The position numbers and the translations under genes were made by a program. This document shows positions 8,318 to 40,543 of a stretch of 64,000 nucleotides of DNA, piece after piece (position 1 is the stretch's first letter; each line of letters opens with the position of its first letter). The notes beneath the pieces are model-generated. The model saw only the letters and a list, made by a program, of their open reading frames with translations. It was not told where the DNA came from and did no database searches. The stretch comes from Blastocatellia bacterium. GTDB lineage: Bacteria; Acidobacteriota; Blastocatellia; UBA7656. The stretch is taken from positions 45,142 to 109,141 of the forward strand of contig DASQDI010000089.1 in the NCBI GenBank assembly GCA_035634255.1, given 5' to 3'.

Positions 8318-8332
8318 CTCCGCCGCCCCCTC

Positions 8333-9724: not shown

Positions 9725-12700
9725 TCACCTCTTCGCCCTCTTCCTCTGCCTGCGCCATTGCATGACGCTGATCGCCGGGGGCACAAGGATGAAGAAGAGG
9801 TTGAAGAGGTCGGGTGATCGGTCATGCAATCTTTCGGGCGGCGCGGCCTGCTCGATCTCTTCCAGACGCTCCTCCCCCCCGCCCGGCTCCTTCGCCCGCG
9901 ACGAGTCGCCCGAGCCCGCGGGCGGGCCGTAGAAATCGCGAACGTCTCTGTTCTGCTTTCGATTCTGGTCCCGAATCTCCGGCACCGCGTAGGGTTCGGG
10001 CCTGCCCCCGACGGCCTTCAGGTACATTCGCCGCATCTCCGACAGGTTGAAGGGCCGGGACCCCCTGCGCCCGAACACCGCGAGCTGGTTGCCGCTCTCA
10101 TCCGCCGCCCGGTCGCGGTCCAGCCCCTCGGAGACGGCGAGCGCCGGGGCGTGCGTGTGGTGCGTCGCGATGAGTCGGGGCGACGGCTTCGGGCTGAAGC
10201 CGTAATGTCCGGGCGTGTCTTCGGGCGACGTGAGCTGCAGGACCCGCAGGCCGTTGCGCCCGTCGGCGACGTAGGCGAACAGGCTCACGTTCGTCATCCC
10301 GACTTTAACGTCGCGCGCGTCGTTGATCTTCCCGCCCGCGTCGTAAAGTTGCTCGACGCGAGGTCGCTCCGGCTGCTCTATGTTGATGACCGCGAGCCCC
10401 TGCCGGCCCGCCGCGACGTAGGCGTAGGTGCGGACCAGATAAATGCTGTTGGCTTCGGGGAGCGGGACGGTGGCCGAGGCGATGGGCCGCGCGTCGGCGG
10501 GCGCGGTCACGTCGATGACCTTCACCCCTTCCGAATCGCACACGAATGCGTAGCGGAACTGGACCTGCACCGCGCGCGGCCGGTTTAGGAAAGGCGCGCC
10601 GACCTCTTTCACCACCCGCGGCTTCAGCGGGTCGTCGAGGTCGATTATCACGAGCCCCCTGTCGCAGGTGACGTAGGCGTGCGTGCCCGCGATGGTGATG
10701 CTGCTCGCGCCGTTGAGCACCCCGCTCGGGTTCCACGTCAGCGCGCGCCTGAGAAAATTATTTCTCGGGTCGCCGTCGAGCAGGGTCGCCGCGCCCACGA
10801 GCACGAGCCCCTCGTGCCTGTCCGTGACGTAAATGTAGCCGTAGAGAGGATGGATCGGCTGCCCGTCGTCGCGGTTGATGGCCTCTTCGTTTTCCGGCAG
10901 GTGCCGCCTCGTCGGGTCCACGGCCATCGTAGAAGGCGAGGCCACCGAGGTCGCGTACTTCGTGTCCACGTAAAACCTCTGGCCGAGCGGAGAGAACGGG
11001 GCCGTGGTTATCCGTTCGGAAAAGCCCTTCTGGTCTATGTTGGCAACGTCGTAGACCTTGAGCCCTCCGCGGCCCGTCGCCGCGTAAAGGTACTCGCCCC
11101 GGAGTTGCAGGCTCAGCACTTCGGTCTTCCTGTCCCGCAGGGGCGTCAAGGCGTTCAGGATGTCGTTGCCCGGATGCTCGTAGAACTCCTTCAGCTCTTC
11201 GTGATTCTCTTTGTGCTTATTATATTGGTCGGGGAAGGCGAGGCCGTGCAGGTAGCTCCCTATGACCGCCTGCGGCTCGTCCCTTTCGGTGACCACCACG
11301 CCCGCGAACCCCGCGTCCCCCAGGGCGACGTAAGCGAACCGGCCTATGAAGTTGTAGAAGTTGGTCCCCTGCATCAGGGTCATCGCCATGAAAGCGTTGT
11401 TGTCGCCCGCGGCCGACACATGGCAATCGGTGCAGCCGCGCGTCTCGCGGGTGCGGACCGTGTGCGGGAAGTGGGGGCTGAACGCCGTGCCGCTGTAACC
11501 TTCCGCCGAGACCGTCTGCTGCTGCGAGTATATCCACTCGCGGTTCTGATTCTGCGAGCTGACGAGCACGGCGCAGGCGGAGCGGATGGGCGCGACCCTC
11601 CGACCCGTCACCGAGCCGTCGCGCCCGAGCAGGAACACGTCGTCGCGGAGGGTCTGGAAGTTATAAGAGGTGTAGTTGCGCAGGTCCTTCTCGCCCTCGT
11701 TGTGCAGCATCGGCATCTTCTCGTTGGCTTCCATCTTGAGGTGGCAGCCGAAGCAGCTGGGGGTCCACGAGGTGTGGCAACTGTAGCAGGTCATGTTCGA
11801 GTTCGCGTGCGCGAGCGAGCCCTCGCCTTCGGGCGCGCGGCCCCACGTCTTCCCGTCCTTGAGCAGGGTCTTCGCGAGCGCCGCGACCTCGTTGTAGTCG
11901 GGGTTCCCCTCCGAGACCGTGTCGGCCACCTGCTTAACTTCCCAGACCTTCGGGTTCCCCTTCTCGTCCGTCGCGACCGCCGCGCGCTGGAACAGCCTGC
12001 CCTCCCTCTTGAAGAACCGGTCCTTGCCCGAAGGGGTGTCGCGGTACTCGATCATCCGGTTGCCGCCCGCCGCGGCGGAGGTCCGCGCTTCGACCGAGGT
12101 GGGGTCGGCGCGCTTCGTTATCGTGCCGTGACAATCGACGCAGTCGATCTCGATGGCGTTGCGCACTTCGCCGTAGAGCTTCCCGTTCCCGTGATTGTCC
12201 TGCTTGAAGTGACAGTCGACGCAGTGCATGCCCTTTTCGAGGTGGATGTCTTTCAGGTGGACGGGCACGCCTTCGCGCGAGGCCGGGTCGTCGGTCGTCT
12301 CCCTGACGGCCCTCCGCAATTTCTCGTTCGTCACTTCGCCGACGACCTTGCCTCCGTGGTCGAGCAGGTTGCCGTGGCGGTCTTTCTTATAAGCCGACCT
12401 GAATACCCAGCCGTGGCCCGTGAAGTCCGCGAACTGGGTGTGTTTGAGCTTCGGGTTCACCTGCTCCGTGAGGCCCTTCAAAAACTCCACGTCCCCCCAC
12501 CTGCCGCGCAGGGCCGACTCTTCCGGGTTGCGCTTCAGAATCTGCTGCGCCTGCTCGGGGCTGAGGGGCTTGCGCTCGCCGGCCTTCGGGTACATCTTGT
12601 CGCCGTCGGTCTCAAGGTCCCACCACGTGTAGCCGAAGTATGAATTGACGACGAGGGTGCCGGGGTGCATGTGGCAGACCACGCACTGGCTCGAAGGGAT

Positions 12701-13828
12701 CGCGCGCGTGAACTGGTGCCTTATGGGGTGGCCCGGCTCGTCCTTCGGGATCGTCGGGTCTTTGCTGTGGCTGAGCCCCGTGTGGCCGTATTGCGAGTAA
12801 GGCCCCGAGTGGAACTGGTCGCGGTCGTTCGCGTAGACGACGTGGCAGGCCGTGCAGCCGCTCGAACGGTAATCGCCCGGCTGGTCGTTCGTGCCCATGA
12901 ACGAGAGCATCGGGTCGAGCAGCCTCGTCTTTTGAAGCCCGAGGAAAACGGGGTCGGTCCTGAGCAGGGTCCCGAGCCCGCGCGGGCTGAGCAAATTCTG
13001 AGTCGGGCGGCCCGGCGGCTCTTCCGTTATGGGGAGCCCGACCTCCGCCGCCTTGCGCCCCCCGCGCTCGAACGTGCGGAGTATGTTTCCCATCTGGGTG
13101 ATCTCCCACCGCGGGAGCGGGTCGAGGAACGGGAGCACGCCCTTTTGCTTAATATCCTGGGCGGACGGCTGCGGGACGGTCTGAAGGCGCTGGGGGCGGC
13201 CCTCGGAGTCGTAGCTCTCGCCGAACCTGTAATTCTTGAGCGGGTACGACCCGTTGTTATAAAGCGCCGCGCCCCAAAGCATCGAGCCCGTAGTCATCAT
13301 GCTCTTGCCGACGTTGTGCACGTCCTCGGTGTGGCACTCGCTCGTGCCGCAGCTCAGGCGCGCCACGCGCAGGTCGCCGGGGTTGATGAAGCGGATGAAC
13401 TCGGGGCTCTCTTTAGTCAAAAGGGTGTTGGACCGCTCGGGATTCGCGGAGCTCTTCCAGGCTTCGGGGAAGCGCGGCGGGACGTGGGCCTTCTGCTTCG
13501 CCTCGGCGTACGCCGAGGCGCCGGGGCCCGCGCCCTGGGCGAGTCGCGCGCCCGCGTCCCCCCCGTGGCAGTCGGTGCAGCCGATGTCGATGGCCCCGCC
13601 GTGCATGTCCTCGATGCCCGCGTGACAGTCTAGGCAGCCCGCGCTCCTCCGCATGGCCTCTTCGGCCGTCGTGTTCCAGAGCCGGGGCCCCTGCGTTTGG
13701 GGATTTTGTGAAGCGGTTCTCGAATCGGCGAGGACGGCGAACGAGTAGCCGCAGGCCAGCGCCAGTATGAGCGACAGCTTCAGGGTGCTTTTCCGCCAGA
13801 CCAGTTTCATTGGGCCGCCCATCTCCAT
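9725..13828 (-). CDS. giant secreted multiheme cytochrome c (about 9 CxxCH plus one CX4CH) with C-terminal LVIVD-repeat beta-propeller and hydrophobic/polybasic tail
   Basis: 1367-aa ORF (alternative start MKLVWRK at 13810); signal peptide [17 protein letters not shown]. Heme motifs CLDCH, CTDCH, CGTSECH, CTACH, CVVCH, CVDCH, CVDCH, CYSCH, CFGCH, CTDCH. Repeats [13 protein letters not shown] / [17 protein letters not shown] / [14 protein letters not shown] / [15 protein letters not shown] / [15 protein letters not shown] / [15 protein letters not shown]-terminus ...[27 protein letters not shown]. Confidence 0.85.
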
Positions 13829-13841
13829 CTCCCGCCGCGAA

Positions 13842-16154
13842 TCAATAGGTGAATTTCAGGCGGACGAATACCGAGTACAACGATTTCGGTTTAGCGCCGC
13901 ACCCCGAGCCCCCGCAGCTTGAGCTGTAAATCTCTTTGAAGCCCGCGTCGGGCACGAGCGACGAAAAGCCCGCCGACACGATGGCGTTCTCGTTTAAAAA
14001 GGGCCTGTAGATGAACCCGAGCCCGTAATCGAGCCCGATGCTCCTGTTTATCCCCGGCTGAAACAACAGCTCTTCGAGCGGCTCCGGGTGGTGGAAGTGA
14101 AGGTAATTCACGTTGAGTACGCCCTTCAGCTTCGGGGTGAGCTCCGCGTCGAGGCCCAGGTTGTAGAGGAACAATCCGGGGTTGACGAAATTGGACTGCC
14201 CTTCGGTCTTGCTACTGCGGAGGCTCGGTATGAGGCTCTCGGGCTGCACGAGCCCGACGCCCGTCTGCGTCAGCCTTATGGCCTGACTGTTCCAGAAGCT
14301 GAACTTCCCGCCCGCGAACTCGGGGAAATCGAAGATCGCGTCGAAGCCCCTCGCCTTGTCGTCGAATGGGTCTTTGTCGCCCGAGGCGAAGAAGAACGAG
14401 CCCTTGAACCTGAGCCAGTCTCTATCGAGCGACAGTTCGAGCGCGGCCATCTGCGCGTTGATGTCCGTGCGGCGGCCCGCTATCGGGTTGCGCGTGTCGT
14501 GGCCTATGACCTGATAGAGTGCGTGATTGATGTTAAGGCGGCCTATGTGCCCGTCCCCGGCCCAACCGAAATAGCTGGACTTGATCCCGTGCGGCGCAAC
14601 GTCCCCGACGGGCGCGGGCCGCACTAGAAAATCGTTCTCGTCGAAATGGCGGCTCGGGCGGTCATTATTGTAGTGATAGCTGAACTGAGTTGTGTAGCCC
14701 TTCCACCCCGTGTCCTGCCGGTAGAGGTTGGCGATGAAGACGGTCTGGTCCCGGAACTCGCCCAGGTTGACGCGCGTGTTCAACTCGCTGTTGGTGTCCT
14801 TCTCAAGCATGTAGAAGTACGCCGCGTTGAAGTTGTAGCGGTTGTTAGCGTGCTGCCCGAACAGCCTGACGCCGAGGTTGAAGTCATTAAATATGAAGCC
14901 CCGGAAATCCGAGACGAGCGGCTGAATGCCCGCGCGGATGAAGGTCGAGTCGAAGAACGGGCTGCCGCCTCCGACGCTCCCGCTCCCGCGCAGGAAAGGG
15001 AGCAGGCGGGTCGTGTCTCCGAGGCGCACTTCCCCGAAGGCTTCCTGAAAGCCGACGTAGCCGTCCGTGCGGTTCGCGCCCCTGCGCGGGTCGATGTTGA
15101 CTATGCCGTTCTCCTGAGTGTTGAGCAGGTTGATGTTGAAGTTGGGCGTGAACCTGAACCTGTAGTCCGCCGGCTTGAAGGCCGCGTCGCCATGGAACAG
15201 CTCGACGGAAAGCAGGAAGTTCTGCCTGAAGAACAACTGCCCCCCGCGCCCGAAAAACTCGGAGCTGTCGGGCCTCTGGCTGCTGATGTCGCTCGGCACG
15301 GGCACGCGCCGCGCGTTGAAGAACGTGTCGCTTTCCGCCGTGACGACGAGGAAGTTGTGCTGGCCGAACAGAGGGTAATCTCCCTTGAGCACGTTCTGGC
15401 GGTACGGGTTGTACCAGCGGCCTTCCTCGAATCTCGGGTCCGAGGGGAACCCGATGCGCCAGCGGTCGGTGACCGTCACCGCGTCCGAAGACTCCTGCTC
15501 GGGCGCGGGAATCCTCGACGGCCCCGCGTACCCGCGAGGCGGGTCAACCGGAGTCTTTATGATCGCCCCGGCCGACGGCTCCGTGCCGCTTTCCAGCGGC
15601 GCCTCGGCGGGTTCATCGAGCGGAGTCAAGGGCTCGTCCGGCACGGTTACGGGCGTGAGATTCGCCTCCCGGTCGTGGCATTCGGAACAGCGCGTGAAGC
15701 CGACGTTAGTAAATCGCTCGTTAGAGGCCTTCATGTCCGAAGCCTTGTGGCACCCTATGCAGAGGCGGTGGAAGGCGTCCCTCGAATTCAGGTCGAAGCC
15801 TTCCCTGTCGTCCGGGTTGCGCGGGTCGCCCAGGGCCCCGTGGCAGGAAGTGCACTTCTGAAACTGCCCCGCTTCGGTTATGTCTTTGACCGTGTGATGG
15901 CACCCGACGCACGCGAGACTTGCGGGGGCTTTGTGAGGGGAGGCCGGGTCGGGATTCAGGACCGCTTCATGTTTTTTATGGTCGAATAAGACGAGGCCCC
16001 TGCGGCCCTGAACGTCGAGCCTTATCGGGAAGGTCTTCTGCGCCGCCCGCTCCGCCTGCGCGGGCTCGGGGCGGGCGAACGCGCGCGATTCAAGCGTCAC
16101 GGGCACGAGCAGGGCCATCGCGTACAGGGCGACTATTGTGAGCTTGAGTGTCAT
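13842..16154 (-). CDS. porin-cytochrome fusion: N-terminal tetraheme c3-like domain joined to a large outer-membrane beta-barrel
   Basis: Start set at [19 protein letters not shown] (ATG 16152-16154, AGGAAGGA RBS) within ORF 13842..16223; CVGCHH, CTSCH, CIGCH, CSECH; then ~580 aa rich in Gly/aromatics with alternating hydrophobic pattern, ending ...[13 protein letters not shown] (beta-barrel-like terminal strand with aromatic end). Confidence 0.8.
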
Positions 16155-16406
16155 CCGGTCCTTCCTGCCCGCGGGACAGCCAAATAGTGACTGCCATACT
16201 GAATGAAGGGATCCAAAAATCAAAACGATCAGGAATAGTTGAGAAGATCGCTTCTTGAAATAGTTGCTTTACGTTCCCTAAGAGCCCGGCTTCTGCGAGT
16301 CCGCGCCAATATAGCACAACGATTCATCAAAGTTAAGCAGCGGGTTCGGCGCGCTCCGGCGCAGCGATACTTTTCGCTCTACAAAATGATCGCGGTTGCA
16401 TGTAAT

Positions 16407-18383
16407 ATGGCGGCGTCGAAAAACTCACCCAGGCGGGACCCGGAGGGCGTCGTGACTAAAACATGCGCGCGAGTGAAACGGGGCGGCGGGAGGGCCGCGC
16501 TTCTGCTGATGGCGGTCGCGGCTCTGGCGTTGAGCGGGAGCGCATTCGCCGCGCTCGTCCGGGCCGAGGGCGTCCCCGTCATCGACCCGCGAAAATCTTC
16601 TTACGACCCGAACACCGGCGCTCTGACGATCAAGGGCGAGAACTTTCAGGCCGGGGCGGCCATCTCCATCTCGAACGACTCGGGCGAGGTCGGCTTCTCA
16701 CGGGTGAAGGTGAAAGGGCCGGGCAAGATCGTCATCAACGGGGTCGCGGAGGCAGACATCCTCGGCGGCCTGACCGTGAAAGTCACCAACCCCGACGGCG
16801 CGTCGGCGGCCGTAGTACTGGAGTTGGAGGTCTCCGACGACAAGCGGCTCGGCGAAAGCGACGTGCGCAGGATCATCGCGCAGGCGGTGGCGCGGGCGGA
16901 GGCGAGCGACCTTAAAGCGACCGTCGCCGTGGTGGACAGGGAAGGAAACGTGCTTGGGGTCTTCAGGATGGCGGGCGCGCGGGCCGACACGGTGATCGGG
17001 ACTGACCGCCCCTGCCGGGACTGCGGCGCTGAAGGGTTGCGCGTGCCGGCGGAACTGGCCGCGATCTCGAAGGCCGGGACCGGCGCGTTCCTGAGCACTC
17101 AGGGCCACGCCTTCACGACGCGCACGGCCAGCTTCATCGTGCAGGAGCACTTCCCCCCCGGCGTGGACTTCACCCCCGGCGGCCCGCTCTTCGGGGTGCA
17201 GTTTTCGCAGCTGCCATGCAGTGACATAAATGCCAAGTTCCCGCTCGGCCTTTCGGCCGACCCCGGAGGCGTGCCTCTCTACAAGAACGGGCTGTTAGTC
17301 GGCGGAGTGGGGGTCGAAGGCGACGGCAGGTACTCGCTCGACCCGGACCCGACCGATTTCGACATGCCCGTGGAGGAGATTGCGGCGGTGGCGGCCACGC
17401 GCGGATTCGAATCGCCGCCCGACATCCGCGGGAATCAGATAATCGTGAACGGCATACGCCTCCCCTTCGTCAACACTCCCGCGCCGCCCGCGCTCCCTCC
17501 GCCGCCGTTCGACCAGCTTCGCGGGGAGCTGCTGGCGGAGGTGAGAAGCTCGCTCCCTTCCACCTTCCGCGCCATAACTCTGCAAGGTTTGAGGGGGAGG
17601 GTCGATGACCGCTTCTTCCCGTTCAGGGGCACGAGCTCGCTCTCGTCGTCGGAGGTGCAAAGGATAATCGTTCAGGGCGCGCGGCAGGCTTTTCTGACGA
17701 GGGCCGCGATACGGAGGCCGCTCGGGAGCGCGGCCGAAGTGAACATCGCCGTCGTAAGCTCGGAAGGGACGGTGCTCGGAATCTTCAGCACTTCGGACGC
17801 CCCGATGTTCGGCTTCGACGTGAGCGTCCAGAAGGCCCGCACGGCCGCGTTCTTCAGCAACGCGGAAGCCGCGTCGCTGCTGCGCTCGGCCGAAGGCGGG
17901 AAGTTCGCTAAGTACGTCTCGGCGGCGGCGCGCGACGGGGTCGCACTCGATGGCCGGATCGCTTTCAGCAACCGGGGGCAGGGATTTTTGAGTCGCCCCT
18001 TCTTCCCGGACGGGATCAACGACAGCGAGCACGGCCCATTCTCCGTGCCAATTGAGGAGTTCAGCCCGTTCAACGTCGGCCTGCAACTCGACCTGTTGCT
18101 CACGGCGATCTCGAAAGCTCTGATGGGAGAGCGCGCGCCCTGCACCGCGATACCGAATCTCGGGAACGGGATACAGATATTCGCGGGCAGCGTCCCCCTC
18201 TATAAAAGCGGGCGTCTGGTCGGGGCCATCGGGGTGAGCGGAGACGGCATCGATCAGGACGACATCATCGCCGCGATGGGTAGCGCGGGATTCGAAGCGC
18301 CCCCGGAGATGCGGTCCGACCGCGTCTTCGTGCGCGATGTCCGCCTGCCCTTCGTGAAATTTCCCCGCAACCCGAACCGGTGA
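16407..18383 (+). CDS. secreted protein with two tandem GlcG/DUF336 (HbpS-like heme-binding/heme-degrading) domains
   Basis: ORF 16239..18383; likely real start at ATG 16386/16407 or GTG 16476 (signal peptide VKRGGGRAALLLMAVAALALSGSAFA). Domain 1 ESDVRRIIAQAVARAEASDLKATVAVVDREGNVLGVFRMAGA...LVGGVGVEGDG; domain 2 SEVQRIIVQGARQAF...VNIAVVSSEGTVLGIFSTSDAP...KARTAAFF...LVGAIGVSGDGIDQDD. Confidence 0.75.
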   Translation: MAASKNSPRRDPEGVVTKTCARVKRGGGRAALLLMAVAALALSGSAFAALVRAEGVPVIDPRKSSYDPNTGALTIKGENFQAGAAISISNDSGEVGFSRVKVKGPGKIVINGVAEADILGGLTVKVTNPDGASAAVVLELEVSDDKRLGESDVRRIIAQAVARAEASDLKATVAVVDREGNVLGVFRMAGARADTVIGTDRPCRDCGAEGLRVPAELAAISKAGTGAFLSTQGHAFTTRTASFIVQEHFPPGVDFTPGGPLFGVQFSQLPCSDINAKFPLGLSADPGGVPLYKNGLLVGGVGVEGDGRYSLDPDPTDFDMPVEEIAAVAATRGFESPPDIRGNQIIVNGIRLPFVNTPAPPALPPPPFDQLRGELLAEVRSSLPSTFRAITLQGLRGRVDDRFFPFRGTSSLSSSEVQRIIVQGARQAFLTRAAIRRPLGSAAEVNIAVVSSEGTVLGIFSTSDAPMFGFDVSVQKARTAAFFSNAEAASLLRSAEGGKFAKYVSAAARDGVALDGRIAFSNRGQGFLSRPFFPDGINDSEHGPFSVPIEEFSPFNVGLQLDLLLTAISKALMGERAPCTAIPNLGNGIQIFAGSVPLYKSGRLVGAIGVSGDGIDQDDIIAAMGSAGFEAPPEMRSDRVFVRDVRLPFVKFPRNPNR

Positions 18384-18408
18384 CGAAAACGGTTCGGGCC
18401 TCTTCTTT
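18371..18408 (+). terminator. hairpin terminator between convergent genes
   Basis: CCCGAACCG-gtgacgaaaa-CGGTTCGGG then CCTCTTCTTT; spans the TGA of the GlcG-like gene. Confidence 0.5.
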
Positions 18409-19453
18409 AAGGCTTGATGAACGACATCACTGCTTCGTTGAAGACCTGCGGCGCTTCGAGGTGAGGGATGTGGCCGACGCTCTTCAACTCCACCAGCCTG
18501 CTCCCCGGTATGTCTCGCGCGGCAGACTTGCCCAGCTGCGGGTACTGGCCGAGTGTCCTGAGCACGTCTTCTGACACGAAATTCCGGCCGACGACCGTGC
18601 GGTCTTCCTGGCCGATGATGAGCAGGGTCGGCGTTCGTATGAGCCCGAACTCGTGGCGGACCGGCTGCTGGTAGATCATCTGATAAGTCAGGGCGGAGGC
18701 TTTCGCCCAGCGGGGGTACTCCCCGCTCAGAGCTATGCGCGCGCGCACCTCGACGAACCTCTCGTACGCTTCGGGCTTCCACTCGACCACGTACCGCTTG
18801 AGGAAGGCGCGAATCCTGGCCGGGTCGGTGTCGTTCAATTCATTCTCGTAGATTTTGCTAGTGGGCTGGGGCGGCACCGTGAAGCGATAATCTTCGAGCC
18901 CGATGGGGTTTTCGAGAACCAGATGCGCCGTGCGTTGCGGGTAATTGCGCGCGATGCGGACGGCCAGCATCCCTCCCATCGAGTGGCCGACGACTGAGGC
19001 TTTATCGACCCCGAGCGCGTCGAGTAGCTTCATGGTATTTTCCGCGAGCAGGTCGAAGGAGTAGGCGATGTCGGGCTTCGACGACTTGCCGAAGCCGACC
19101 TGATCCGGCACGACGACTCGGTAGCCGGCGGAGGTCAACGCTTTTATCGGCCCTTCCCAGTAACTCCCATAAAAGTTCTTCCCGTGCAGGAGCACCACGG
19201 TCCGCTCGTTAGACCGGGCGGGCGGGGCGACATCCATGTAGGCCATGCGCACGGGCTGCCCTTCGATCTCAAGCGGCAGGTACTTTACCGGGTGCGGGTA
19301 CGGCCAGGACTCCATAGCGATGCCGAGAGGGGCGGAGTAAGCGCCGGGCTCCCGGTTCGGCGCTGAGACGGCGCCAGAGCAGGCGAGGGCTGAAAGTAGA
19401 ATGAGCCTGAGACATTGGAATGTAGCGGAGGCTTTGGCGCGAAGTGGGATCAT
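18407..19453 (-). CDS. secreted alpha/beta-fold hydrolase
   Basis: 348 aa; signal peptide; nucleophile elbow GHSMGG; HGKNFYGSYW oxyanion region. Confidence 0.85.
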   Translation of the reverse strand: MIPLRAKASATFQCLRLILLSALACSGAVSAPNREPGAYSAPLGIAMESWPYPHPVKYLPLEIEGQPVRMAYMDVAPPARSNERTVVLLHGKNFYGSYWEGPIKALTSAGYRVVVPDQVGFGKSSKPDIAYSFDLLAENTMKLLDALGVDKASVVGHSMGGMLAVRIARNYPQRTAHLVLENPIGLEDYRFTVPPQPTSKIYENELNDTDPARIRAFLKRYVVEWKPEAYERFVEVRARIALSGEYPRWAKASALTYQMIYQQPVRHEFGLIRTPTLLIIGQEDRTVVGRNFVSEDVLRTLGQYPQLGKSAARDIPGSRLVELKSVGHIPHLEAPQVFNEAVMSFIKP

Positions 19454-19534
19454 GCCGGCCTTTCATCACGATTGCGGAAAGTATCAGCCTGTCCACTAAT
19501 GTAGAATTCTGTGCGAACGGAAGGATTTTGGCAA

Positions 19535-19575
19535 CCGGAGGGCCTGACCGACGCCACGCCGGTCAGGCCCTCCGG
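19535..19575 (-). terminator. 16-bp perfect stem-loop downstream of the desaturase gene
   Basis: CCGGAGGGCCTGACCG / CGGTCAGGCCCTCCGG with 9-nt loop, directly after the desaturase stop (19584). Confidence 0.5.
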
Positions 19576-19583
19576 CCGCGAGT

Positions 19584-20450
19584 CTACGCGGCCTGCCGCG
19601 ACTGCTTCTTAATGAGGTCGCGCGTCGTCCTTACATCGGACGCGAGCTTCAACGCCTTGAGGGCCCCGATCACATACCACCCAACGTCAACCTGCCACCA
19701 GCGGCGGCCGAACCTCGCCGCGTTTGCGTCCGAGTGATGGTTTCTGTGCCAGTTCTCCCCCCAGGCCCCCAGTTGCAGGGGGCCGAGCCACCAGATGTTT
19801 CGGCTGGAATCCACCCCATCGGGCAGGCCGGGCGTCAGGTGCAGAAGGCTGTTGACGAACATCTGAAAGTGCAGGGCGTAGACCAGACGGATCGCCCCGA
19901 TCCAGAAGAACCCTTCCCAACCGAAGGCCAGTCCGGAGAATATCGACAGGGCGATGATCGGGATCTGAAGCCGCCTCCACAACCTATAGCCCGGCCTGTT
20001 CATGTCGGGGCACCAGCGGCCAACGTCCGAGCCTGACCATTGGTAGACCCACCTCAGGTGCGCCCACCAGAAGCCGCCGTGGCGCGGGCTCGATATGTCT
20101 TCGACGGAGTCGGACTTCGCGTGGTGGTGGCGATGATTCGCGACCCATCCCATCGGCTCCCCCGACGCGTTGAAGATGGCGAAGAATATGAGGACGTTCT
20201 CGACAACCGGGTTCAACCTCAGTGAGCGGTGGGCGAGGCTCCGGTGGTAGCACACGGAGGTCCCCACCCCGCCGATTGAGGCGAGCGCCAGAGCGACCAG
20301 GAGCACGGGCCAGCCGGGCAGGGGGAATAAGATTAAGCCCGCCACCGCCAGCACGTGAATGAGGACGAAATAAAATAAGACGGGGCCATTGCCTTCGGAC
20401 GGCTTCCACCAGGGTCGCATCCAGGGTCGTTTTTCTATTAGCTGCATCAA
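19584..20450 (-). CDS. acyl-CoA (stearoyl-CoA delta-9-type) fatty-acid desaturase, membrane
   Basis: 288 aa; three His boxes HRSLAH, HRHHH, HRNHH; hydrophobic helices. Confidence 0.85.
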   Translation of the reverse strand: MMQLIEKRPWMRPWWKPSEGNGPVLFYFVLIHVLAVAGLILFPLPGWPVLLVALALASIGGVGTSVCYHRSLAHRSLRLNPVVENVLIFFAIFNASGEPMGWVANHRHHHAKSDSVEDISSPRHGGFWWAHLRWVYQWSGSDVGRWCPDMNRPGYRLWRRLQIPIIALSIFSGLAFGWEGFFWIGAIRLVYALHFQMFVNSLLHLTPGLPDGVDSSRNIWWLGPLQLGAWGENWHRNHHSDANAARFGRRWWQVDVGWYVIGALKALKLASDVRTTRDLIKKQSRQAA

Positions 20451-20472
20451 TCTCCTTCTCGCCTCGGACGGG

Positions 20473-20838
20473 TTAGTTATTCGGGAGGGCTCTTTCCTGA
20501 CGAGGGATGAAGCTGGAGATTGCCGCCGCCTCGGAGTCGAACGTCTCGAAAACAGTTATCAACTTTGTGATCACCAACAGATCATTCAGGCGCTTATTGA
20601 GGTGGAGCAGCTTCATATCCCCGCTCACCTTTCGCATCTGTGTGAAAGTGGATATGAGCTCGCCAAGCCCGCTGCTGTCCATATAATTTACTTTCGCCAT
20701 GTTTATGATGAGCTTGCGGCCTCCGGCCTCGATGTTGGTGGTAACGAGCCCTCTGAACTGCCCTTCGCCCCCGAGGACGAACTGCCCTTCGAGATCGATG
20801 ACCGTTACATCATTTAGCGTACGCTCGTGAATTTTCAT
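20473..20838 (-). CDS. STAS-domain anti-sigma-factor antagonist (SpoIIAA/RsbV-like)
   Basis: 121 aa; STAS pattern incl. MDSSGLGELI. Confidence 0.8.
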   Translation of the reverse strand: MKIHERTLNDVTVIDLEGQFVLGGEGQFRGLVTTNIEAGGRKLIINMAKVNYMDSSGLGELISTFTQMRKVSGDMKLLHLNKRLNDLLVITKLITVFETFDSEAAAISSFIPRQERALPNN

Positions 20839-21100
20839 CTTTACTCCTCACCTTTCCTTACCGATTCGCATTCATAAATAACTATATAGACTTCGGCGGA
20901 GAACTTCTGTTCAATACAGGACATGGGTAGATAAAACCGGCATAAAAACATGTTCGGCCCGCGTAGGGAGCCCGAGCCCGCGATTTATCCGCGCCATCGT
21001 CTAATATGGCACAGCGTCGGTACCCCCGGGGGTGTATAATAATTCGGTCCGGGAAGCAACCGGACAGGACGCCACCTTAATCGCCCTGACCGGGAGCGTT

Positions 21101-21781
21101 ATGATCGAGAACAACCCTGAAATGAATTTATTCAAAGAGCGGATACGCGAGTCGCTCCAACGCGAGACCCAAAACTCCAGCGCCATCAGGGTCTCCAAGC
21201 ACAACAAGGTGTACGTGGTCGGGGATGAAGTCGACATGGTCTACTTCATCGAGAGCGGCGAGGTCAAACTGATTATGGTCTCGTCCGAAGGCAAAGAGTG
21301 CCTGCTTGCGATTCATGCCTCGGGAGATATTTTCGGCGAGCTGTGCCTGTCCGGGATGGCCGGCCGCATGGAGACGGCTGTCGCGATGGAGGACACGGTT
21401 CTGAAACAGGTCCATTGCACCAGATTCCTTGAGAGTTTGGCCAGAGACTCTCTGCTCGAAGGTTTCATCAAGTATCTGGCGGTGCGCGTGGCGGACCAAC
21501 AGGTGGTCATAGCGAATCTGGTGACGGTTGACAGCGAGCAGCGTCTGGGGAAGACCCTGCTGCAGCTGGCCAGAAAGCTCGGCAAGAAGGACCCTCGCAG
21601 CATACGCATCGAGCTCAAAATCTCGCACGAGGAGTTGTCCTCGATGGTCGGCACCACGAGGCCGCGCATCAGCATGTTCATGCAGAGATTTCGGAACCTC
21701 GGGCTCATCGAGACGAGCGCGGAGAACCACCTGATCATCAAGGAAGCGAAGCTCACCGCATACCTGTCATCCATCGCCTAG
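21101..21781 (+). CDS. Crp/Fnr-family transcriptional regulator (cNMP-binding + C-terminal HTH)
   Basis: ORF 21032..21781, start probably MIENNPE (21101) or MNLFKER (21122); cNMP-binding beta-roll (GDIFGELCL); HTH ISHEELSSMVGTTRPRISMFMQRFRNLGLI. Confidence 0.8.
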   Translation: MIENNPEMNLFKERIRESLQRETQNSSAIRVSKHNKVYVVGDEVDMVYFIESGEVKLIMVSSEGKECLLAIHASGDIFGELCLSGMAGRMETAVAMEDTVLKQVHCTRFLESLARDSLLEGFIKYLAVRVADQQVVIANLVTVDSEQRLGKTLLQLARKLGKKDPRSIRIELKISHEELSSMVGTTRPRISMFMQRFRNLGLIETSAENHLIIKEAKLTAYLSSIA

Positions 21782-21945
21782 CCCCTCGCCGCCATACGCC
21801 CGGCCATTTATATAAACACATGTCTAATAGTGAACCGCCCCGGATTCAGGCATTTGATATTATAGGTGCAACGAATAACGGCAATAAGAGTGGGCTTGGA
21901 GATATTAACTTAAAGGACTGAAGTCTGAATGAGAAAGGCAACACC

Positions 21946-22365
21946 ATGTCTGTCATGTTACGAGCGACAAAAAGAATTCTTTACGTAGATGATAATGAAG
22001 ATTCCTGCGAAATGATCACCGTACTGCTTGAGATAGGTGGTTACGAGGTGGCCACCGCGCATACCGTGGACGACGGTTTGAGCCGGGCCAAGCTTGAGCA
22101 GTTTGACCTGTACGTCATGGACAACAGATTCCCGGACGGCACGGGAGTTGACCTCTGCCGCCTGATCCGCGCATCCGACGAAGACACTCCGATCATCTTT
22201 TATTCGGGCGCCGCGTACCCCTATGACATCAAAGAGGGATTGGATGCGGGCGCACAATGCTACCTGACGAAACCGAGCGGCATTTACGACATTGAACGGA
22301 CCATAACAGGGTTGCTCGCCGGGACCGGGGAGGTTATGGCGAATCCCCGGCAAAGCCAGCCTTAA
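21946..22365 (+). CDS. single-domain response regulator receiver (CheY-like)
   Basis: 139 aa; ILYVDDNEDS...DLYVMDNRFPDGTG...YLTKP receiver signatures. Confidence 0.85.
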   Translation: MSVMLRATKRILYVDDNEDSCEMITVLLEIGGYEVATAHTVDDGLSRAKLEQFDLYVMDNRFPDGTGVDLCRLIRASDEDTPIIFYSGAAYPYDIKEGLDAGAQCYLTKPSGIYDIERTITGLLAGTGEVMANPRQSQP

Positions 22366-22447
22366 TGCAGGATCGCGGAAACGGCCCTCGCCGGTAAGCG
22401 CGCCGCACGGGGCGAGCGAACTCATTGCCGGGGATTCATCCGGGCTA

Positions 22448-22660
22448 TCAGGCTCCCGCCGCGCTGGCTCGACGCGACAGCGCCATCCTCGCCATATCGG
22501 CAAGGTCCTCTTCGTCGAAGTCAACCTTCTCCATGATCCCGCTCAGATACTCGACGCACTTGCGAAATTCCTTCGAAGGGAATCCCTTCCCGAGGTCGCC
22601 GTCATACTTCCCCTGCGCTCTTTGCTGAGTGTAAGACTCGTACTTTTCTTCCAAGCTCAT
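22448..22660 (-). CDS. small hypothetical protein (70 aa)
   Basis: ORF only; last gene of a four-gene minus-strand cluster in the lower-GC island. Confidence 0.4.
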   Translation of the reverse strand: MSLEEKYESYTQQRAQGKYDGDLGKGFPSKEFRKCVEYLSGIMEKVDFDEEDLADMARMALSRRASAAGA

Positions 22661-22686
22661 AACTGGTACGTCCTTTCTGATTCAGA

Positions 22687-23184
22687 CTATATTTCCGCGG
22701 GCCCGGCAAAGCCGGTCTGCCGTCCGGGGCTGCCGCCCTGTAATTTTTCGACCACCTCTCGGATGGACATTCTGACGTAGTCGGAGCCGAGGTGGCTGTA
22801 AGAGATAAGCCAGTGCGGGTAGAACATCTCCAGGACCTCTTTCGCGTCGCTGGTTTCGCCGAACGTGGCTTTGATCGTGGCATTATTTGCGGCAGTGATC
22901 CTATCTGAGGCCCCGTAACAGACGCTCCCCACGGCGGTATTCCCGCCCCTCGGCACGAGGTCGAACTTCAACTGCCGGTCTTTCTCGAAGGTGAACGGCA
23001 GCATCGCGACGTTGGCATCTTCGGCCCACTCCGCCAGGCCGGAAAAGTCACCTGACAGCCCGACGGACACCGCGTTAAACGCGGGCAGCCGGAACATCTC
23101 GCTCAGATTTTTGTGAATCAATCTGCAAGCCTGCTCGCCTTCGTTTCGTACGGTGCTCTTATTCGATTCGACCGTGTACCACAT
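22687..23184 (-). CDS. hypothetical protein (165 aa)
   Basis: ORF with neighbour-consistent spacing; no recognisable motif. Confidence 0.5.
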   Translation of the reverse strand: MWYTVESNKSTVRNEGEQACRLIHKNLSEMFRLPAFNAVSVGLSGDFSGLAEWAEDANVAMLPFTFEKDRQLKFDLVPRGGNTAVGSVCYGASDRITAANNATIKATFGETSDAKEVLEMFYPHWLISYSHLGSDYVRMSIREVVEKLQGGSPGRQTGFAGPAEI

Positions 23185-23244
23185 AATTAATCCTGACCGC
23201 TCGGGCGCGCCCGTTCCGACTCGGGCCGGCCGAGCGAATCGCGT

Positions 23245-23604
23245 TCAATTAACGAAGCCCGTCAACCACGTCTGGACTTTCGCGGCCTTGTCGCCGAAGT
23301 AAGTTTCCGCGCCGGAGAACGTGTCCGTGCGCAGCCAGAAGCCCCGCTCGTTCATGTCGAGGAATCGGTAGCGCCCCGTGGCCTTCTCGCGCAGGATGTA
23401 GCACTTCTTTGTGAAGACCTCGTAGCGCACGGCGTAGGACCCGCCTTCATAGATGAGCTGGCTCAGGAACCTCTCGCCCTTGTCGCTGTTCTCAATCCAC
23501 ACGTCGAGCTCGCCGAGCTGGTTGCGCCCGAACCGGTGGTTGGTGATGTGTACCTTGTCGGCGTCTACGAGGTCGTAAAGCTCGGGTTCAAATTCTTTGT
23601 TCAT
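23245..23604 (-). CDS. hypothetical protein (~120 aa)
   Basis: Start taken at MNKEFEPELYDL inside ORF 23245..23736; adjacent to the zf-HC2 gene stop. Confidence 0.5.
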   Translation of the reverse strand: MNKEFEPELYDLVDADKVHITNHRFGRNQLGELDVWIENSDKGERFLSQLIYEGGSYAVRYEVFTKKCYILREKATGRYRFLDMNERGFWLRTDTFSGAETYFGDKAAKVQTWLTGFVN

Positions 23605-23606
23605 AA

Positions 23607-23831
23607 TTATCCTTTGGCAGCAATCACGGACATGACATAACTTCGCATGTCCGGAGAAACATCCGGTCGCGCAGAGCCTTTGAGTATCAGCGACACCTGC
23701 TCCAACTCGGCCAGGTATGTGTGACAACCGGCGCATGTCTCAACGTGCGCCCGGTAGTTGACCACATCGCTCTGCCCGAGTTGTCGGTCCAAATGGGCAG
23801 AGGCAATCAATCCGGACTTGTCACACCTCAT
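23607..23831 (-). CDS. small zf-HC2-type (putative anti-sigma zinc-finger) protein
   Basis: 74 aa; HVETCAGCH = H-x3-C-x2-C motif; no TM segment. Confidence 0.5.
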   Translation of the reverse strand: MRCDKSGLIASAHLDRQLGQSDVVNYRAHVETCAGCHTYLAELEQVSLILKGSARPDVSPDMRSYVMSVIAAKG

Positions 23832-23890
23832 ATCAGATCAGCTCCGGTCAACCCCAGGCTCGTTACCAATCAGTACGCCTTCAGGGTAGG

Positions 23891-24142
23891 CTAATTCCTG
23901 GGTTTGGCGTCGGTCACTTTAAGCGCCCGCCCGTGCAGGTCCTGCCCGTTGAGTTTTTCCTTGGCTGACTCGGCATCCTCTTTCAGATTCATCTCGATGA
24001 AGCCGAAGCCCTTCGAGCGGCCCGAATCGCGGTCGGTTATCAGGTGGCAGGAATCCACGGCGCCTACTCCGCTGAAAAGGGTGTTGAGGTCATCACTGGA
24101 AGTATCATGGGAGAGGTTCCCAACGAACAATTTGACTGACAT
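23891..24142 (-). CDS. RRM-type RNA-binding protein
   Basis: Start at MSVKLFVGNL (RNP-2) inside ORF 23891..24187; RNP-1 KGFGFIEM. Confidence 0.85.
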   Translation of the reverse strand: MSVKLFVGNLSHDTSSDDLNTLFSGVGAVDSCHLITDRDSGRSKGFGFIEMNLKEDAESAKEKLNGQDLHGRALKVTDAKPRN

Positions 24143-24349
24143 AAAGGTGGTCCTTTCGGTAGAGGAAGCCTGCCCCTCGGGATACATGTTGCCAGGCTGC
24201 CGGATACTCTGAAGGTGAGCTGTGATTCAGATGGACTGGCGGATTCCAGAGAAGCTGAAGAAGAGAGCGAGCTATGCTCAGTTCTGCCTTAACCCTAACA
24301 CCTCATGGAGGCTTTGTCAAATAATGGCCTTTTTACGCAGGTTTAGGGC

Positions 24350-24392
24350 AAAAAATCGGCCGGCGCGGTCGCTTATTTCAACCGCGCCGGCC
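24350..24392 (-). terminator. rho-independent terminator of uvrB
   Basis: 12-bp perfect GC-rich stem (GGCCGGCGCGGT/ACCGCGCCGGCC) followed on the minus strand by a T6 tract, 14 nt after the uvrB stop. Confidence 0.7.
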
Positions 24393-24405
24393 AGACGGAA
24401 ATCAT

Positions 24406-26391
24406 TCACGTGAGTTCGATCTCGCGGCCGCGCAGGTATTTGATCTTATCGCGCAGTTCCGCCGCGCGCTCGAACTCGAAGCGCGAGGCCGCCCCGCGCA
24501 TCTCAAGCTCAAGGCGGGTGATCGTCTCGCGTATGTTCTCGGGCGTGTAGTCCTCGATCTGGTCGAGGTCGAGAGGCACTTTGAAGTAATCCGCCTCGCT
24601 TATCGAGACGAGAGTCGAGTCGATGGCCTTCACAATCGTCTGCGGGGTGATGCCGTGCTCGGCGTTGTAGGCGGCCTGCTTTTCGCGGCGGCGCTGGGTC
24701 TCGCCAATCGCGCGCCGCATGGAATCGGTCATGCGGTCGGCGTAGAGGATGGCTTTGCCGCGCACGTTGCGAGCGGCGCGGCCTATGGTCTGGATGAGCG
24801 ACATCTCGGACCGCAGGAAGCCTTCCTTATCGGCGTCGAGGATGGCGACGAGCGAGACTTCGGGCAGGTCCAGCCCCTCTCGCAGGAGATTGATGCCGAC
24901 GAGCACGTCGAACTCCCCGCGCCGCAGGTCGCGCAGTATCTTTATGCGTTCGAGCGTGACGACCTCGGAGTGCAGGTAGCGCACGCGGACCCCGAGCTCG
25001 GCGTAGTACTCGGTCAGGTTCTCGGCCATCTTCTTGGTGAGCGTGGTGACGAGCACGCGCTCGTTCCTCGCGACGCGCTCGCGGATCTCGTTCAGGAGGT
25101 CGTCGACCTGCCCGCGCACGGGCCGGACGTCGACTTCGGGGTCGATCAGGCCCGTGGGGCGGATCACCTGCTCGATCACCTCCCCGCCGGTCTTGCCGAG
25201 CTCGTAGGGGCCGGGGGTCGCGCTGACGAAGACGACCTGCCCCACGCGCCGCTCCCACTCGTCGAAGTTGAGCGGGCGGTTGTCCATCGCGGAAGGCAGG
25301 CGAAACCCGAAATCGACGAGGGTGCGCTTGCGCGACTGGTCGCCCGCGTACATCCCGCGCACCTGCGGCACGGTCTGGTGGCTCTCGTCGACGACCACCA
25401 TCGAGTCGCGCGGCAGGTAGTCGAGCAGGGTCGGGGGCGGCTCGCCCGGGAGCCTGCCCGTGAGGTGGCGCGAGTAGTTCTCGATGCCGTGACAGTAGCC
25501 GAGCTCCTTGAGCATCTCTATGTCGTACATCGTGCGCTGGTGGAGGCGCTGCGCTTCGAGCAGCTTGCCCTGGTCGACCAGCTGCGGCTCCCACTCGTCG
25601 AGCTCCTGCCTGATCGTCTTGATCGCCCGCTTGAGCGTATCCTGCGGCATCACGTAGTGAGACTTCGGGTATATCGGCAGGCGGTCGTGCTTTTCGATCA
25701 CCTCCCCGAGCAGGGGGTCGATGGTCGATATGGAGTCGACCTCGTCGCCCCAGAACTCGATGCGGATGGCCTTGTCCTGGTAGACCGGGTAGATCTCGAC
25801 GATGTCCCCGCGCACGCGGAACGAGCCGCGCTCGAAGGCCACGTCGTTGCGCTGGTACTGGATCTCGACCAGCTTGCGGAGCAGGGCCGTGCGCGAGAGC
25901 TGCTGGCCCCGCTCGATGAAGGCCACCATCCCGTAATAAGCGTCCGGGTCCCCGAGGCCGTAGATGCAGGAGACGCTCGCGACGATGATGCAGTCGCGCC
26001 GCTCAAATAAGCTGCGCGTGGCCGAGAGGCGGAGGCGGTCGATCTCTTCGTTGATCGTCGCCTCCTTCTCGATGAACGTGTCGGTCGATGGGATGTAGGC
26101 TTCGGGCTGGTAGTAGTCGTAATAGCTGACGAAATATTCTATCGCGTTGTGCGGGAAGAATGATTTGAACTCCTGGTACAGCTGGGCGGCGAGGGTCTTG
26201 TTGTGCGCCATGACGAGCACGGGGCGGTTGACGCGCTCGACCACGGAGGCCACGGTAAAAGTCTTGCCGCTGCCGGTCACCCCCAGCAGCACCTGATGGT
26301 CGAGGTTTTCGTTGAGGCCCCGGACCAGCTGCTCTATCGCCTGAGGCTGGTCCCCCTGCGGCGCGTAATCCGATACGAGCTTGAAATCCAT
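24406..26391 (-). CDS. uvrB: excinuclease ABC subunit B
   Basis: Start [19 protein letters not shown] (AGGGAG RBS) in ORF 24406..26514; Walker A GVTGSGKT; [10 protein letters not shown]; C-terminal UVR motif [15 protein letters not shown]. Confidence 0.95.
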
Positions 26392-26591
26392 TAGACTCCC
26401 TTTTCCGGCGGTAAGGTCGTTGAGAGGCGGAAAAATTCTCCTCCGCGACACAGGTGTCCGCAATCTTTTATCACCTGAAACGAAATTATACAGGCCAGTT
26501 AACGGGGCAGGCAACGCACGCGGAATGGCTCGAAAAAACAGGCGCGCCGAAAAAAAGAAGACCGAAAGTTTGATGCTTTATGAATAGGCGC

Positions 26592-40447: not shown

Positions 40448-40543
40448 AGAGGGTATTATAGTGCCTGCTTTAGCAGGGGGAAGAATAGCACCCGCCGGCC
40501 ATCTTCCCCTCAAGCCATATACCCACCCACGGCACATCCCGAC

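Follow-up and report, generated by a model that had tools for sequence, protein, structure and literature searches.

A low-GC stretch beside uvrB in a Blastocatellia genome as part of a class-specific gene cluster around a putatively self-activating CRP/FNR factor

The closest described counterparts of the locus analyzed here are the class II regulons of the CRP/FNR family, those of E. coli CRP, C. glutamicum GlxR, M. tuberculosis Crp and cyanobacterial NtcA. In these regulons, a two-domain protein is paired with a palindromic box of the form TGT-N10-ACA, the box lies 21 nt before the -10 hexamer with its centre at -41.5 (a geometry established for E. coli CRP), and a box is also found at the promoter of the regulator gene itself. 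To our knowledge, almost no regulation has been described in Blastocatellia, a class of abundant soil Acidobacteria. Here, we analyze a stretch of 64,000 nucleotides from a Blastocatellia bacterium (GenBank assembly GCA_035634255.1, contig DASQDI010000089.1, positions 45,142 to 109,141 of the forward strand; hereafter the window), in which an earlier note had picked out positions 20450-24200, next to uvrB, as a lower-GC island packed with small regulators and genes of unknown function. On balance, we think it probable that this low-GC stretch makes up the regulator-rich portion of a Blastocatellia-specific cluster of 6.0 kb, built around a self-activating CRP/FNR factor (Crp) and serving stress acclimation. 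The locus gives a testable circuit, with a Crp factor, an operator, predicted promoters and a first set of targets, and it adds three families of small proteins confined to the class, as well as a conserved mRNA leader.

The locus is similar to the class II regulons in each of the respects just named, with binding of the box being predicted here. It differs in its half-site, which is TGTYCA (TGTGA for CRP, TTGAT for FNR and GTA for NtcA), in an R-P-R recognition helix and an R-M-E contact in the regulator, and in the absence of the FNR Cys cluster from the Crp of the window. The targets are different as well: CarD paralogues, desaturases, a STAS protein, a receiver and three orphan small proteins. 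What is new is the half-site, the content of the regulon and a probable non-cAMP ligand; the regulator and the predicted promoter architecture are of the CRP/FNR kind. In the literature searched, neither the operator nor a regulon of this kind is described, and nothing relevant turned up on its TGTTCA/TGAACA palindromes or on a Blastocatellia Crp regulon.

A second comparison is with cold-response gene sets. An RRM-type RNA-binding protein, desaturases and a chaperonin make up the classic cyanobacterial cold set. Single-domain RRM proteins are needed for growth in the cold in Synechocystis (PMC9333190), and those of Bacteroides are likewise needed for cold growth and feed back on their own expression (PMC13370968). 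Like the cyanobacterial rbp/des and Bacteroides RRM-1 cold sets, the Blastocatellia loci combine a single-domain RRM protein of about 83 amino acids (aa) with nearby desaturases and, in one relative, a chaperonin; the self-feedback described in Bacteroides (PMC13370968) would fit the conserved 5' leader of the RRM gene in the window. The RRM protein here differs in having no glycine-rich tail, and the resemblance is one of gene content; clustering of the genes and control through a Crp-type box have not been described for the cold sets in the literature searched. The third comparison is with partner-switching and anti-sigma modules of the SpoIIAA/RsbV and RsrA types, which the locus recalls in the DSSG serine of its STAS protein and in a small soluble protein with an H-x3-C-x2-C motif (zf74). 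It differs from such modules in that the block contains no kinase, phosphatase or sigma factor, and in that zf74 scores below threshold and is dispensable across the relatives.

The genes of the block are as follows (GC3, GC content at third codon positions; ORF, open reading frame). All of those that the earlier note had listed, namely STAS, Crp/Fnr, receiver, minus-strand cluster and RRM, are present by ORF, Pfam and NCBIfam analysis.

18384-24415: the whole block, 6,032 bp, an indel present in the window and absent at the same site in the closest relatives
18407-19453, minus strand: α/β hydrolase, 348 aa (PF00561, 91.8 bits), with a signal-peptide-like N-terminal segment; GC3 0.80, native
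19584-20450, minus strand: membrane fatty-acid-desaturase-like protein, 288 aa, with three His boxes; GC3 0.83, native
20473-20838, minus strand: STAS anti-sigma-factor antagonist, 121 aa (PF01740, 55.5 bits; TIGR00377, 62 bits against a cut-off of 53.45)
21101-21781, plus strand: CRP/FNR-family transcription factor, 226 aa (listed ORF 21032-21781)
21946-22365, plus strand: stand-alone response-regulator receiver, 139 aa (PF00072, 79.3 bits)
22448-22660, minus strand: u70, 70 aa, conserved end to end
22687-23184, minus strand: u140, 165 aa here and about 140 aa in relatives, the window copy having an 8-aa insertion and a 17-aa C-terminal extension
23245-23604, minus strand: u119, 119 aa, starting 2 nt after the zf74 stop; GC3 0.85
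23607-23831, minus strand: zf74, a small soluble, zinc-binding anti-sigma-like protein, 74 aa, with H-x3-C-x2-C; lowest GC3, 0.63
23891-24142, minus strand: single-domain RRM-type RNA-binding protein, 83 aa (PF00076, 78.6 bits; NF058537, 92.4 bits against a cut-off of 100)

The central evidence for a common regulon is a predicted operator, a 16-bp palindrome of the TGT-N10-ACA form with the consensus TGTYCAATATTGRACA, which precedes the orthologous crp genes of 13 relatives' loci (L-numbers below denote the relatives' loci that were compared with the window). In the relatives, the box upstream of crp is followed 21 nt later by TATACT or TATAAT. A position weight matrix (PWM) was built from the relatives only, with the sites of the window excluded. 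Its four best matches in the 64-kb window all fall at 19490-21836, in intergenic DNA inside the block; shuffled sequence gives 1.85 ± 0.9 matches at ≥9 bits. Three of the four are part of predicted promoters:

20881-20923, minus strand: predicted Crp-dependent promoter of STAS and desaturase, with operator at 20908-20923 (PWM 16.8-17.2), 21 nt, and -10 hexamer TATAGT at 20886-20881
20998-21040, plus strand: predicted autoregulatory crp promoter, with operator CGTCTAATATGGCACA at 20998-21013 (PWM 16.5), 21 nt, and -10 hexamer TATAAT at 21035-21040
21821-21863, plus strand: predicted Crp-dependent receiver promoter, with operator TGTCTAATAGTGAACC at 21821-21836 (PWM 15.6), 21 nt, and -10 hexamer TATTAT at 21858-21863
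19490-19505, no strand assigned: weak operator-like site TGTCCACTAATGTAGA upstream of the hydrolase gene (PWM 11.9-12.4, fourth-best in 64 kb)

Of the 36 -10-like hexamers located at a distance of 14-29 nt from a box, 23 stand at exactly 21 nt, including those at all three good window sites, and in silico this spacing would centre the box at about -41.5, the class II geometry of CRP/FNR activation. Sites of ≥14 bits number 70 in 364 kb of cluster loci (window included), with 0 of them inside the mapped gene families, and none was found in 69 kb of the relatives' housekeeping loci. The weak site at 19490 was considered as a class II promoter for the hydrolase and rejected, there being no -10-like hexamer at 21 nt and the box lying 37 bp from the start codon.

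The boxes of the relatives keep the same register as those of the window, also in operons with u119, u70, CarD-like paralogues and desaturases. The distance from box to start codon in the relatives is 83-88 bp for Crp, 133-165 bp for the receiver and 172-321 bp for u140 (five loci). Other genes with a box upstream are those for STAS, both CarD paralogues and both desaturases, along with u119 directly (L019), Cpn60, a GroEL paralogue (L010), phospholipase C (L009) and the RRM protein (L005); in many loci the order box, CarD, u70, u119, 288-aa desaturase recurs. Which protein would bind the box? We infer that it is the neighbouring Crp protein, because the operator is typical of the family, a box stands at the regulator's own promoter, and regulator and targets are located together. 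In several relatives (L003 12226-12375, L004 10259-10408 and L009 7233-7418), the Crp box is separated from the CarD paralogue gene by a small ORF of 49-61 aa, which may encode a leader peptide or an additional small protein of the regulon.

Crp itself has the sequence of a standard two-domain CRP/FNR member, with a β-roll of the cNMP-binding type (PF00027, 50.3 bits, cut-off 27.5) followed by HTH_Crp_2 (PF13545, 51.7 bits, cut-off 27). Its true start is probably at 21101, giving 226 aa as in the orthologues, to which it is 72-80% identical. Among solved structures, GlxR, CooA, M. tuberculosis Crp and NtcA come closest (E about 1e-20), and residues 23-215 align with GlxR. The contact with the cyclic phosphate is made by R82-S83 in E. 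coli CRP and by R-T-S in GlxR. Where GlxR has P-R-T-S-S, the window protein has G-R-M-E-T, and because the R-[ST] phosphate contact thus reads R-M-E, the signal is probably not cAMP. Cys is absent from the approximately 60 N-terminal residues of the 226-aa protein, which leaves no FNR-type Cys cluster, and neither sequence nor alignment contains an evident haem ligand pattern. The recognition helix has R-P-R in place of the R-E-T of CRP and GlxR, and this fits the change of half-site to TGTYCA (not TGTGA). One relative, L010, has two Crp paralogues in its cluster (2946-3626 and 7819-8499), 78% and 62% identical to the window Crp; the second directly follows u119 and lacks an upstream box.

Many Blastocatellia loci contain the gene set again, with its order shuffled; conservation of the neighbourhood had been proposed earlier as a check. 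The arrangement of RRM, small protein, u119 and u140, followed by receiver and Crp on the opposite strand, with or without STAS or CarD, is seen in L002-L004 and L007, and the outer flanks of the relatives' clusters are mutually unrelated. A metagenome scan with a u119 profile added 39 loci. The following counts come from the 16 non-redundant u119 loci of at least 5 kb and refer to genes within 3 kb of u119:

CarD-like paralogue: 11 of 16 loci
385-aa desaturase (PF00487): 8 of 16
288-aa desaturase, 73-76% identical to that of the window: 7 of 16
u70: 7 of 16
Crp: 6 of 16
RRM protein: 5 of 16
receiver: 5 of 16
u140: 4 of 16

Orthologues of the 288-aa desaturase (73-76% identical) lie beside u119 in at least nine loci. 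The translation of the window copy reads HRSLAH, HRHHH and HRNHH at its three His boxes; the protein matches the NCBIfam DesA family at E = 3.7e-27 (95.5 bits against a cut-off of 400), and no Pfam match was found at E < 0.1. The desaturase gene starts 22 bp after the STAS stop, and the two probably form one operon, in front of which lies the predicted promoter at 20881-20923. A terminator-like hairpin, an inverted repeat, is located directly 3' of the desaturase stop:

19535-19575, minus strand: hairpin with 19-nt arms, 95% complementary, and a 3-nt loop

On the far side of STAS and desaturase, the minus-strand ORFs of 74, 119, 165 and 70 aa lie 2-60 bp apart, each with a Shine-Dalgarno-like AGGA or GGAG. 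The three proteins u70, u119 and u140 have no match in Pfam, NCBIfam, PADLOC or PHROGs, as the earlier note had supposed in calling them unknowns, and by sequence they are real, lineage-restricted families without a known domain. Homologues of u70, 50-54% identical, stand directly upstream of u119 in eight other loci. The u119 family comprises 59 clusters, all unnamed or hypothetical, and its named members, like the four genome matches of the 140-aa family, are from Blastocatellia. Its predicted model is all-β and confident, with no match to the fold among solved or viral structures and none to the profile among the sequences of solved structures. In 5.8 billion sequences, the u140 family amounts to only 28 protein clusters. 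When 1.84 billion representatives were searched exhaustively with its profile, 10 hits came back, all of them family members or fragments, and the profile had one match to the sequences of solved structures, at chance level (E = 0.34); the AlphaFold2 model is unusable (pLDDT 49.8). From the neighbourhoods, u70 and u119 may work with the CarD paralogue, with the desaturases, or with both.

The fourth member of the minus-strand group behaves differently. The motif HVETCAGCH, near the N-terminus of zf74, is kept in the L007 homologue, and the H-x3-C-x2-C pattern behind the earlier zf-HC2 assignment is present. The assignment itself falls short of the family threshold (PF13490, 19.9 bits against 22.2), as do those to NF052368 (25.4 against 50) and the RsrA-type TIGR03988 (23.8 against 62.5). 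The earlier note had made zf74 the lead gene of the unknowns, and this is not what the relatives suggest: zf74 is the patchiest and least conserved member, with homologues only in L007, L012/L020 and L056/57, while the unknowns are found together with CarD paralogues and desaturases, behind Crp-type operators. The slot between RRM and u119 is a mosaic, which contains only the zinc-finger part in the window, only a two-helix membrane protein of about 90 aa in L002-L004, and both in one frame in L007. The ORF in the L007 slot looks like an intact membrane anti-sigma factor that may be split or trimmed elsewhere. The slots in the relatives are:

L007, 1480-2082
L002, 7212-7496
L003, 8789-9058
L004, 6834-7100

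Not every member appears to be needed everywhere. L056 carries a copy of the cluster with 91% nucleotide identity in which 305 bp are missing from inside u140, so that a remnant of 73 aa is left, and from which the receiver gene is lost outright. Both u140 and the receiver are thus dispensable, and by its sequence the cluster is eroding in some populations. The deletions are located as follows:

L056 1181-1402, against window 22840-23146
L056 1723-1756, against window 21848-22344

The RRM gene stands at the head of the minus-strand group. From the orthologues, its true start is probably at 24142, within an ORF that runs to 24187, and the RRM_1 domain takes up nearly the whole protein. Upstream lie a predicted promoter and leader:

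24143-24320, minus strand: sigma-70-type promoter and 5' leader of about 143 nt, with TTGACA at 24320-24315, 17 nt, and TAGGGT at 24297-24292

The first ~90 nt of the leader are near-identical in six relatives' loci, though the RRM proteins are only 60-77% identical. The leader contains two hairpins, one of GAGC/GCTC and one of CTGG/CCAG nested in TTCAG/CTGAA, along with a CU-rich tract. In the hairpins of the consensus fold every pair is invariant, and covariation is consequently uninformative either way. Rfam has no match for the leader, nor for anything else over 19500-25000 at E ≤ 1. We regard the leader as a candidate feedback or thermosensing element. It is found in the relatives at:

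L003, 8212-8372
L004, 6205-6365
L005, 12779-12939
L020, 6208-6368
L007, 1006-1166
L038, 1-116
L056, 1-230

Two other conserved leader classes, unrelated to each other, occur upstream of other RRM paralogues in the relatives:

first class: L029 1217-1477, L007 4972-5232 and L002 6513-6773
second class: L010 12213-12473 and L008 12754-13014

How might these parts work together? In the circuit that we propose, Crp (21101-21781) would respond to a signal, probably other than cAMP, by activating its own gene and a local regulon. The RRM gene, and zf74, u119, u140 and u70 behind it, would be read from the sigma-70-type promoter, and the RRM protein may exert feedback at the conserved leader. The regulon may serve stress acclimation, most likely a cold or membrane-fluidity response, through desaturases, an RNA chaperone (the RRM protein), CarD stabilizing open complexes, a chaperonin and, perhaps, the phospholipase. 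CarD-family proteins are known to stabilize open complexes of RNA polymerase. The three unknowns u70, u119 and u140 would then be lineage-specific small cytoplasmic effectors or adaptors of the stress response. If the cold or membrane-fluidity part is true, the locus would show how a phylum outside the model organisms organizes such a response.

Several points weigh against this proposal. The transcription starts, the binding of the box by Crp, and activation rather than repression are all things that we infer. The three boxes of the window are the most degenerate of the set (15.6-18 bits, compared with 19-29 in the relatives), and there is no good box upstream of the RRM-zf74-u119-u140-u70 unit of the window, whose membership in the regulon is taken from the relatives. 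The window cluster also lacks the commonest partners of u119, a CarD paralogue and the 385-aa desaturase; tblastn located no CarD paralogue or second desaturase anywhere in the window. GC3 is below the window mean in six of the eight low-GC genes, and an exchange with a relative of somewhat lower GC is possible. Finally, the stress-acclimation role, and its possible link to cold or membrane fluidity, is read from gene content, which an oxygen, redox or desiccation signal fits equally well.

This last point leads to the strongest alternative, in which the same Crp-centred regulon answers to oxygen or redox state, desiccation or light, and not to cold or membrane fluidity. Oxygen, nitric oxide, carbon monoxide and redox state are frequent signals of CRP/FNR regulators, CarD-type proteins take part in light and oxidative responses in Myxococcus, and Blastocatellia are typical of dry soils. 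An oxygen or redox signal is plausible because desaturases need oxygen, as do the AurF/CylC-like di-iron enzymes encoded in the relatives' loci, and a peroxiredoxin gene lies nearby in some of them. Against it, Crp has neither an FNR-type Cys cluster nor an evident haem ligand pattern. The combination of RRM, desaturases and chaperonin also resembles a cold set, and RRM proteins have a part in the cold response of both Bacteroides (PMC13370968) and Synechocystis (PMC9333190). We consider a signal of this other kind a serious alternative, though the less probable choice. A more specific version of the proposed circuit, which we think rather unlikely as a whole, is that u70, u119 and u140 are a new set of small-protein effectors that couple a dedicated CarD paralogue, acting on RNA polymerase open complexes, and the desaturases to a temperature or membrane-state signal through the non-cAMP Crp, with the block moving from one chromosomal site to another as a cassette that lacks a mobility gene.

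The origin of the block calls for a separate argument, since the earlier note had taken its composition as a sign of horizontal acquisition. The GC dip is real: positions 20450-24200 have 55.7% GC, compared with 62.4% for the whole 64-kb window, which makes them the minimum among all 3.75-kb windows (mean 62.3%, standard deviation 2.2%), and 400-bp windows within the zone drop to 48.5-51%. A discrete block also exists, but the true unit is larger than the 3.8 kb first described and includes the desaturase and the hydrolase. The closest relatives found are L054 (GCA_035537555.1, 61.5% GC) and L055, in both of which UvrB is 95% identical to that of the window. The spacer between uvrB and an HbpS-like gene is 163 bp in these two and 6,032 bp in the window. 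By blastn, L054 3-8077 corresponds to window 32388-24416 and L054 8241-10291 to window 18383-16371; both flanks are collinear with L054 and L055 at 82-85% nucleotide identity, and the HbpS-like gene is convergent to uvrB in both. The block joins the low-GC genes to the native-GC desaturase and hydrolase genes, and the boundaries of the indel differ from those of the low-GC zone. More distant relatives, L052 and L053 (UvrB 91-92% identical), share the purC side of uvrB and carry aroC and def on the other side, so that the 3' end of uvrB is a recurrent synteny breakpoint. The UvrB protein of the window exactly matches one named as coming from a Blastocatellia metagenome-assembled genome.

Could the block be a genomic island recently acquired from a donor of lower GC, and still bearing the composition of that donor? 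Like a classical island, it is present in one genome and absent from two close relatives, and its GC lies below that of its surroundings; it holds the lowest-GC 3.75 kb of the window, the GC3 of six of its eight low-GC genes falls in the lowest 2-18% of window genes, relatives with the cluster have 51-58% GC, and the 3' end of uvrB is a synteny breakpoint in other relatives too. Unlike a classical island, it has class-typical contents in a host of the same class, composition matched to that host, a low-GC zone not coextensive with the indel, and no integrase, tRNA target or direct repeats. The earlier note had itself remarked that integrase and repeats were absent from the borders. This was borne out, with no integrase or mobility gene in the block or the tested flanks, only short chance matches as border repeats and, in addition, no tRNA in a scan of the region.

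The composition of the genes argues in the same direction. The relatives' loci are 51-56% GC overall, and in four of five the cluster lies 2-6.5 points below its own flanks. Among orthologues, GC content at the first and second codon positions (GC1 and GC2) is nearly the same, while GC3 follows the host, at 0.65-0.85 here and 0.48-0.69 in genomes of 52-54% GC. Gene by gene, GC3 in the window is about 0.1-0.3 above that of the orthologues in those genomes, roughly as it is for the flanks, and the genes rank alike in every genome, u119 being highest or close to it and receiver and RRM lowest. The coding deficit of the region is 6.6 points in GC1, 6.6 in GC2 and 9.3 in GC3, so that about 60% of it falls at non-synonymous positions (GC1 and GC2). 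The region is 23% non-coding, with 53% GC in that part, whereas the non-coding share elsewhere is 15%. A lower GC3 does exist in the six genes, as a test of codon usage proposed earlier would have it, but GC3 tracks the host, and set against the window's remaining short genes the deficit is only marginal (p = 0.067). Within the block, the desaturase (0.83), hydrolase (0.80), u119 (0.85) and crp (0.80) genes have native-looking GC3. Divergence is similar to that of housekeeping genes: in the one genome pair compared, window and GCA_964615905.1, cluster proteins are 55-78% and housekeeping proteins 63-92% identical.

We conclude from these sequence comparisons that the low GC reflects the amino-acid make-up of small proteins, AT-rich regulatory DNA and a modest GC3 deficit of short genes, and that the cluster has long been in step with its high-GC host and carries no donor signature. 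Because the pattern is conserved in the relatives, low GC is not a marker of foreign origin here, and we judge a recent lower-GC island unlikely. The block may have reached the uvrB site, or been lost from it in the sisters, by rearrangement or exchange among close relatives, with no recognizable mobility genes; relocation, loss in the sister lineage and exchange among close relatives all remain as options. There is a general caution in this result: a GC dip together with an indel relative to sister genomes can stem from the amino-acid make-up of small regulators and AT-rich control DNA. A NUDIX hydrolase gene elsewhere in the window (40001-40537, minus strand) has the lowest composition of all (49% GC, GC3 0.55), below that of any gene of the reported island, and adjoins a He_PIG Ig-domain ORF (40544-40930, GC3 0.67). 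This pair may be a better candidate for foreign DNA.

Another possibility is that the block is a sigma-control module, in which zf74 would be the anti-sigma factor and STAS the anti-anti-sigma factor in partner switching of an ECF or general-stress sigma factor, and Crp a mere neighbour. The H-x3-C-x2-C motif of zf74 with its weak matches to anti-sigma families, the DSSG phospho-serine motif of STAS (YMDSSGLG in the translation), and the continuity in L007 of the zf-HC2 region with a segment of two transmembrane helices, as in membrane anti-sigma factors, are all consistent with this idea. It is difficult, however, to assemble such a module from the block, which has no sigma factor, RsbW-type kinase or PP2C phosphatase. 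The nearest gene for an ECF sigma factor is 35 kb away (59451-60212, plus strand). No cognate kinase or PP2C for STAS was found in 18384-24415 or the tested flanks, and tblastn with a relative's PP2C was empty across the window. Moreover, zf74 reaches none of the family cut-offs and most relatives' clusters have no copy of it, and the operators tie STAS and the receiver to Crp as targets. A sigma-control module is thus distinctly unlikely, and we prefer to see STAS and the receiver as parts of the Crp regulon. A zf-HC2 and TPR protein that does exceed the zf-HC2 threshold (24.2 bits) is encoded at 43081-44100 on the minus strand, not adjacent to the cluster.

The earlier suggestion that the unknowns and the zinc-finger gene form a stress, toxin-like or anti-phage system fits in its stress option, but a defence or toxin-antitoxin-like system is very improbable: the genes are indeed small, tightly spaced, unassigned in function and in a variable region, and u140 and the receiver, deleted in a near relative, are dispensable, yet PADLOC has nothing for the five small proteins and PHROGs gives no match, u119 has no viral structural match, the neighbours are regulators, CarD paralogues and desaturases and not defence genes, the four genes are not a fixed set (zf74 is mostly absent, and u70 is upstream of u119 elsewhere), and the families are confined to one bacterial class, whereas defence genes usually spread patchily across phyla.

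The remaining features concern the two edges of the block. On the uvrB side, an intrinsic terminator would separate uvrB from the cluster:

24357-24393, minus strand: uvrB intrinsic terminator, 15-bp stem with 12 G-C pairs and a T run

As listed, the uvrB ORF (24406-26514, 702 aa, TTG start) overruns by about 41 codons; its homologues have 661 aa, which places the start at 26391. Just beyond the other edge, window 9725-18383 encodes a 1367-aa LVIVD-repeat/cytochrome c3-like protein, a 793-aa multihaem cytochrome and a 714-aa HbpS-like protein, and all three genes are kept in the sister genome L054.

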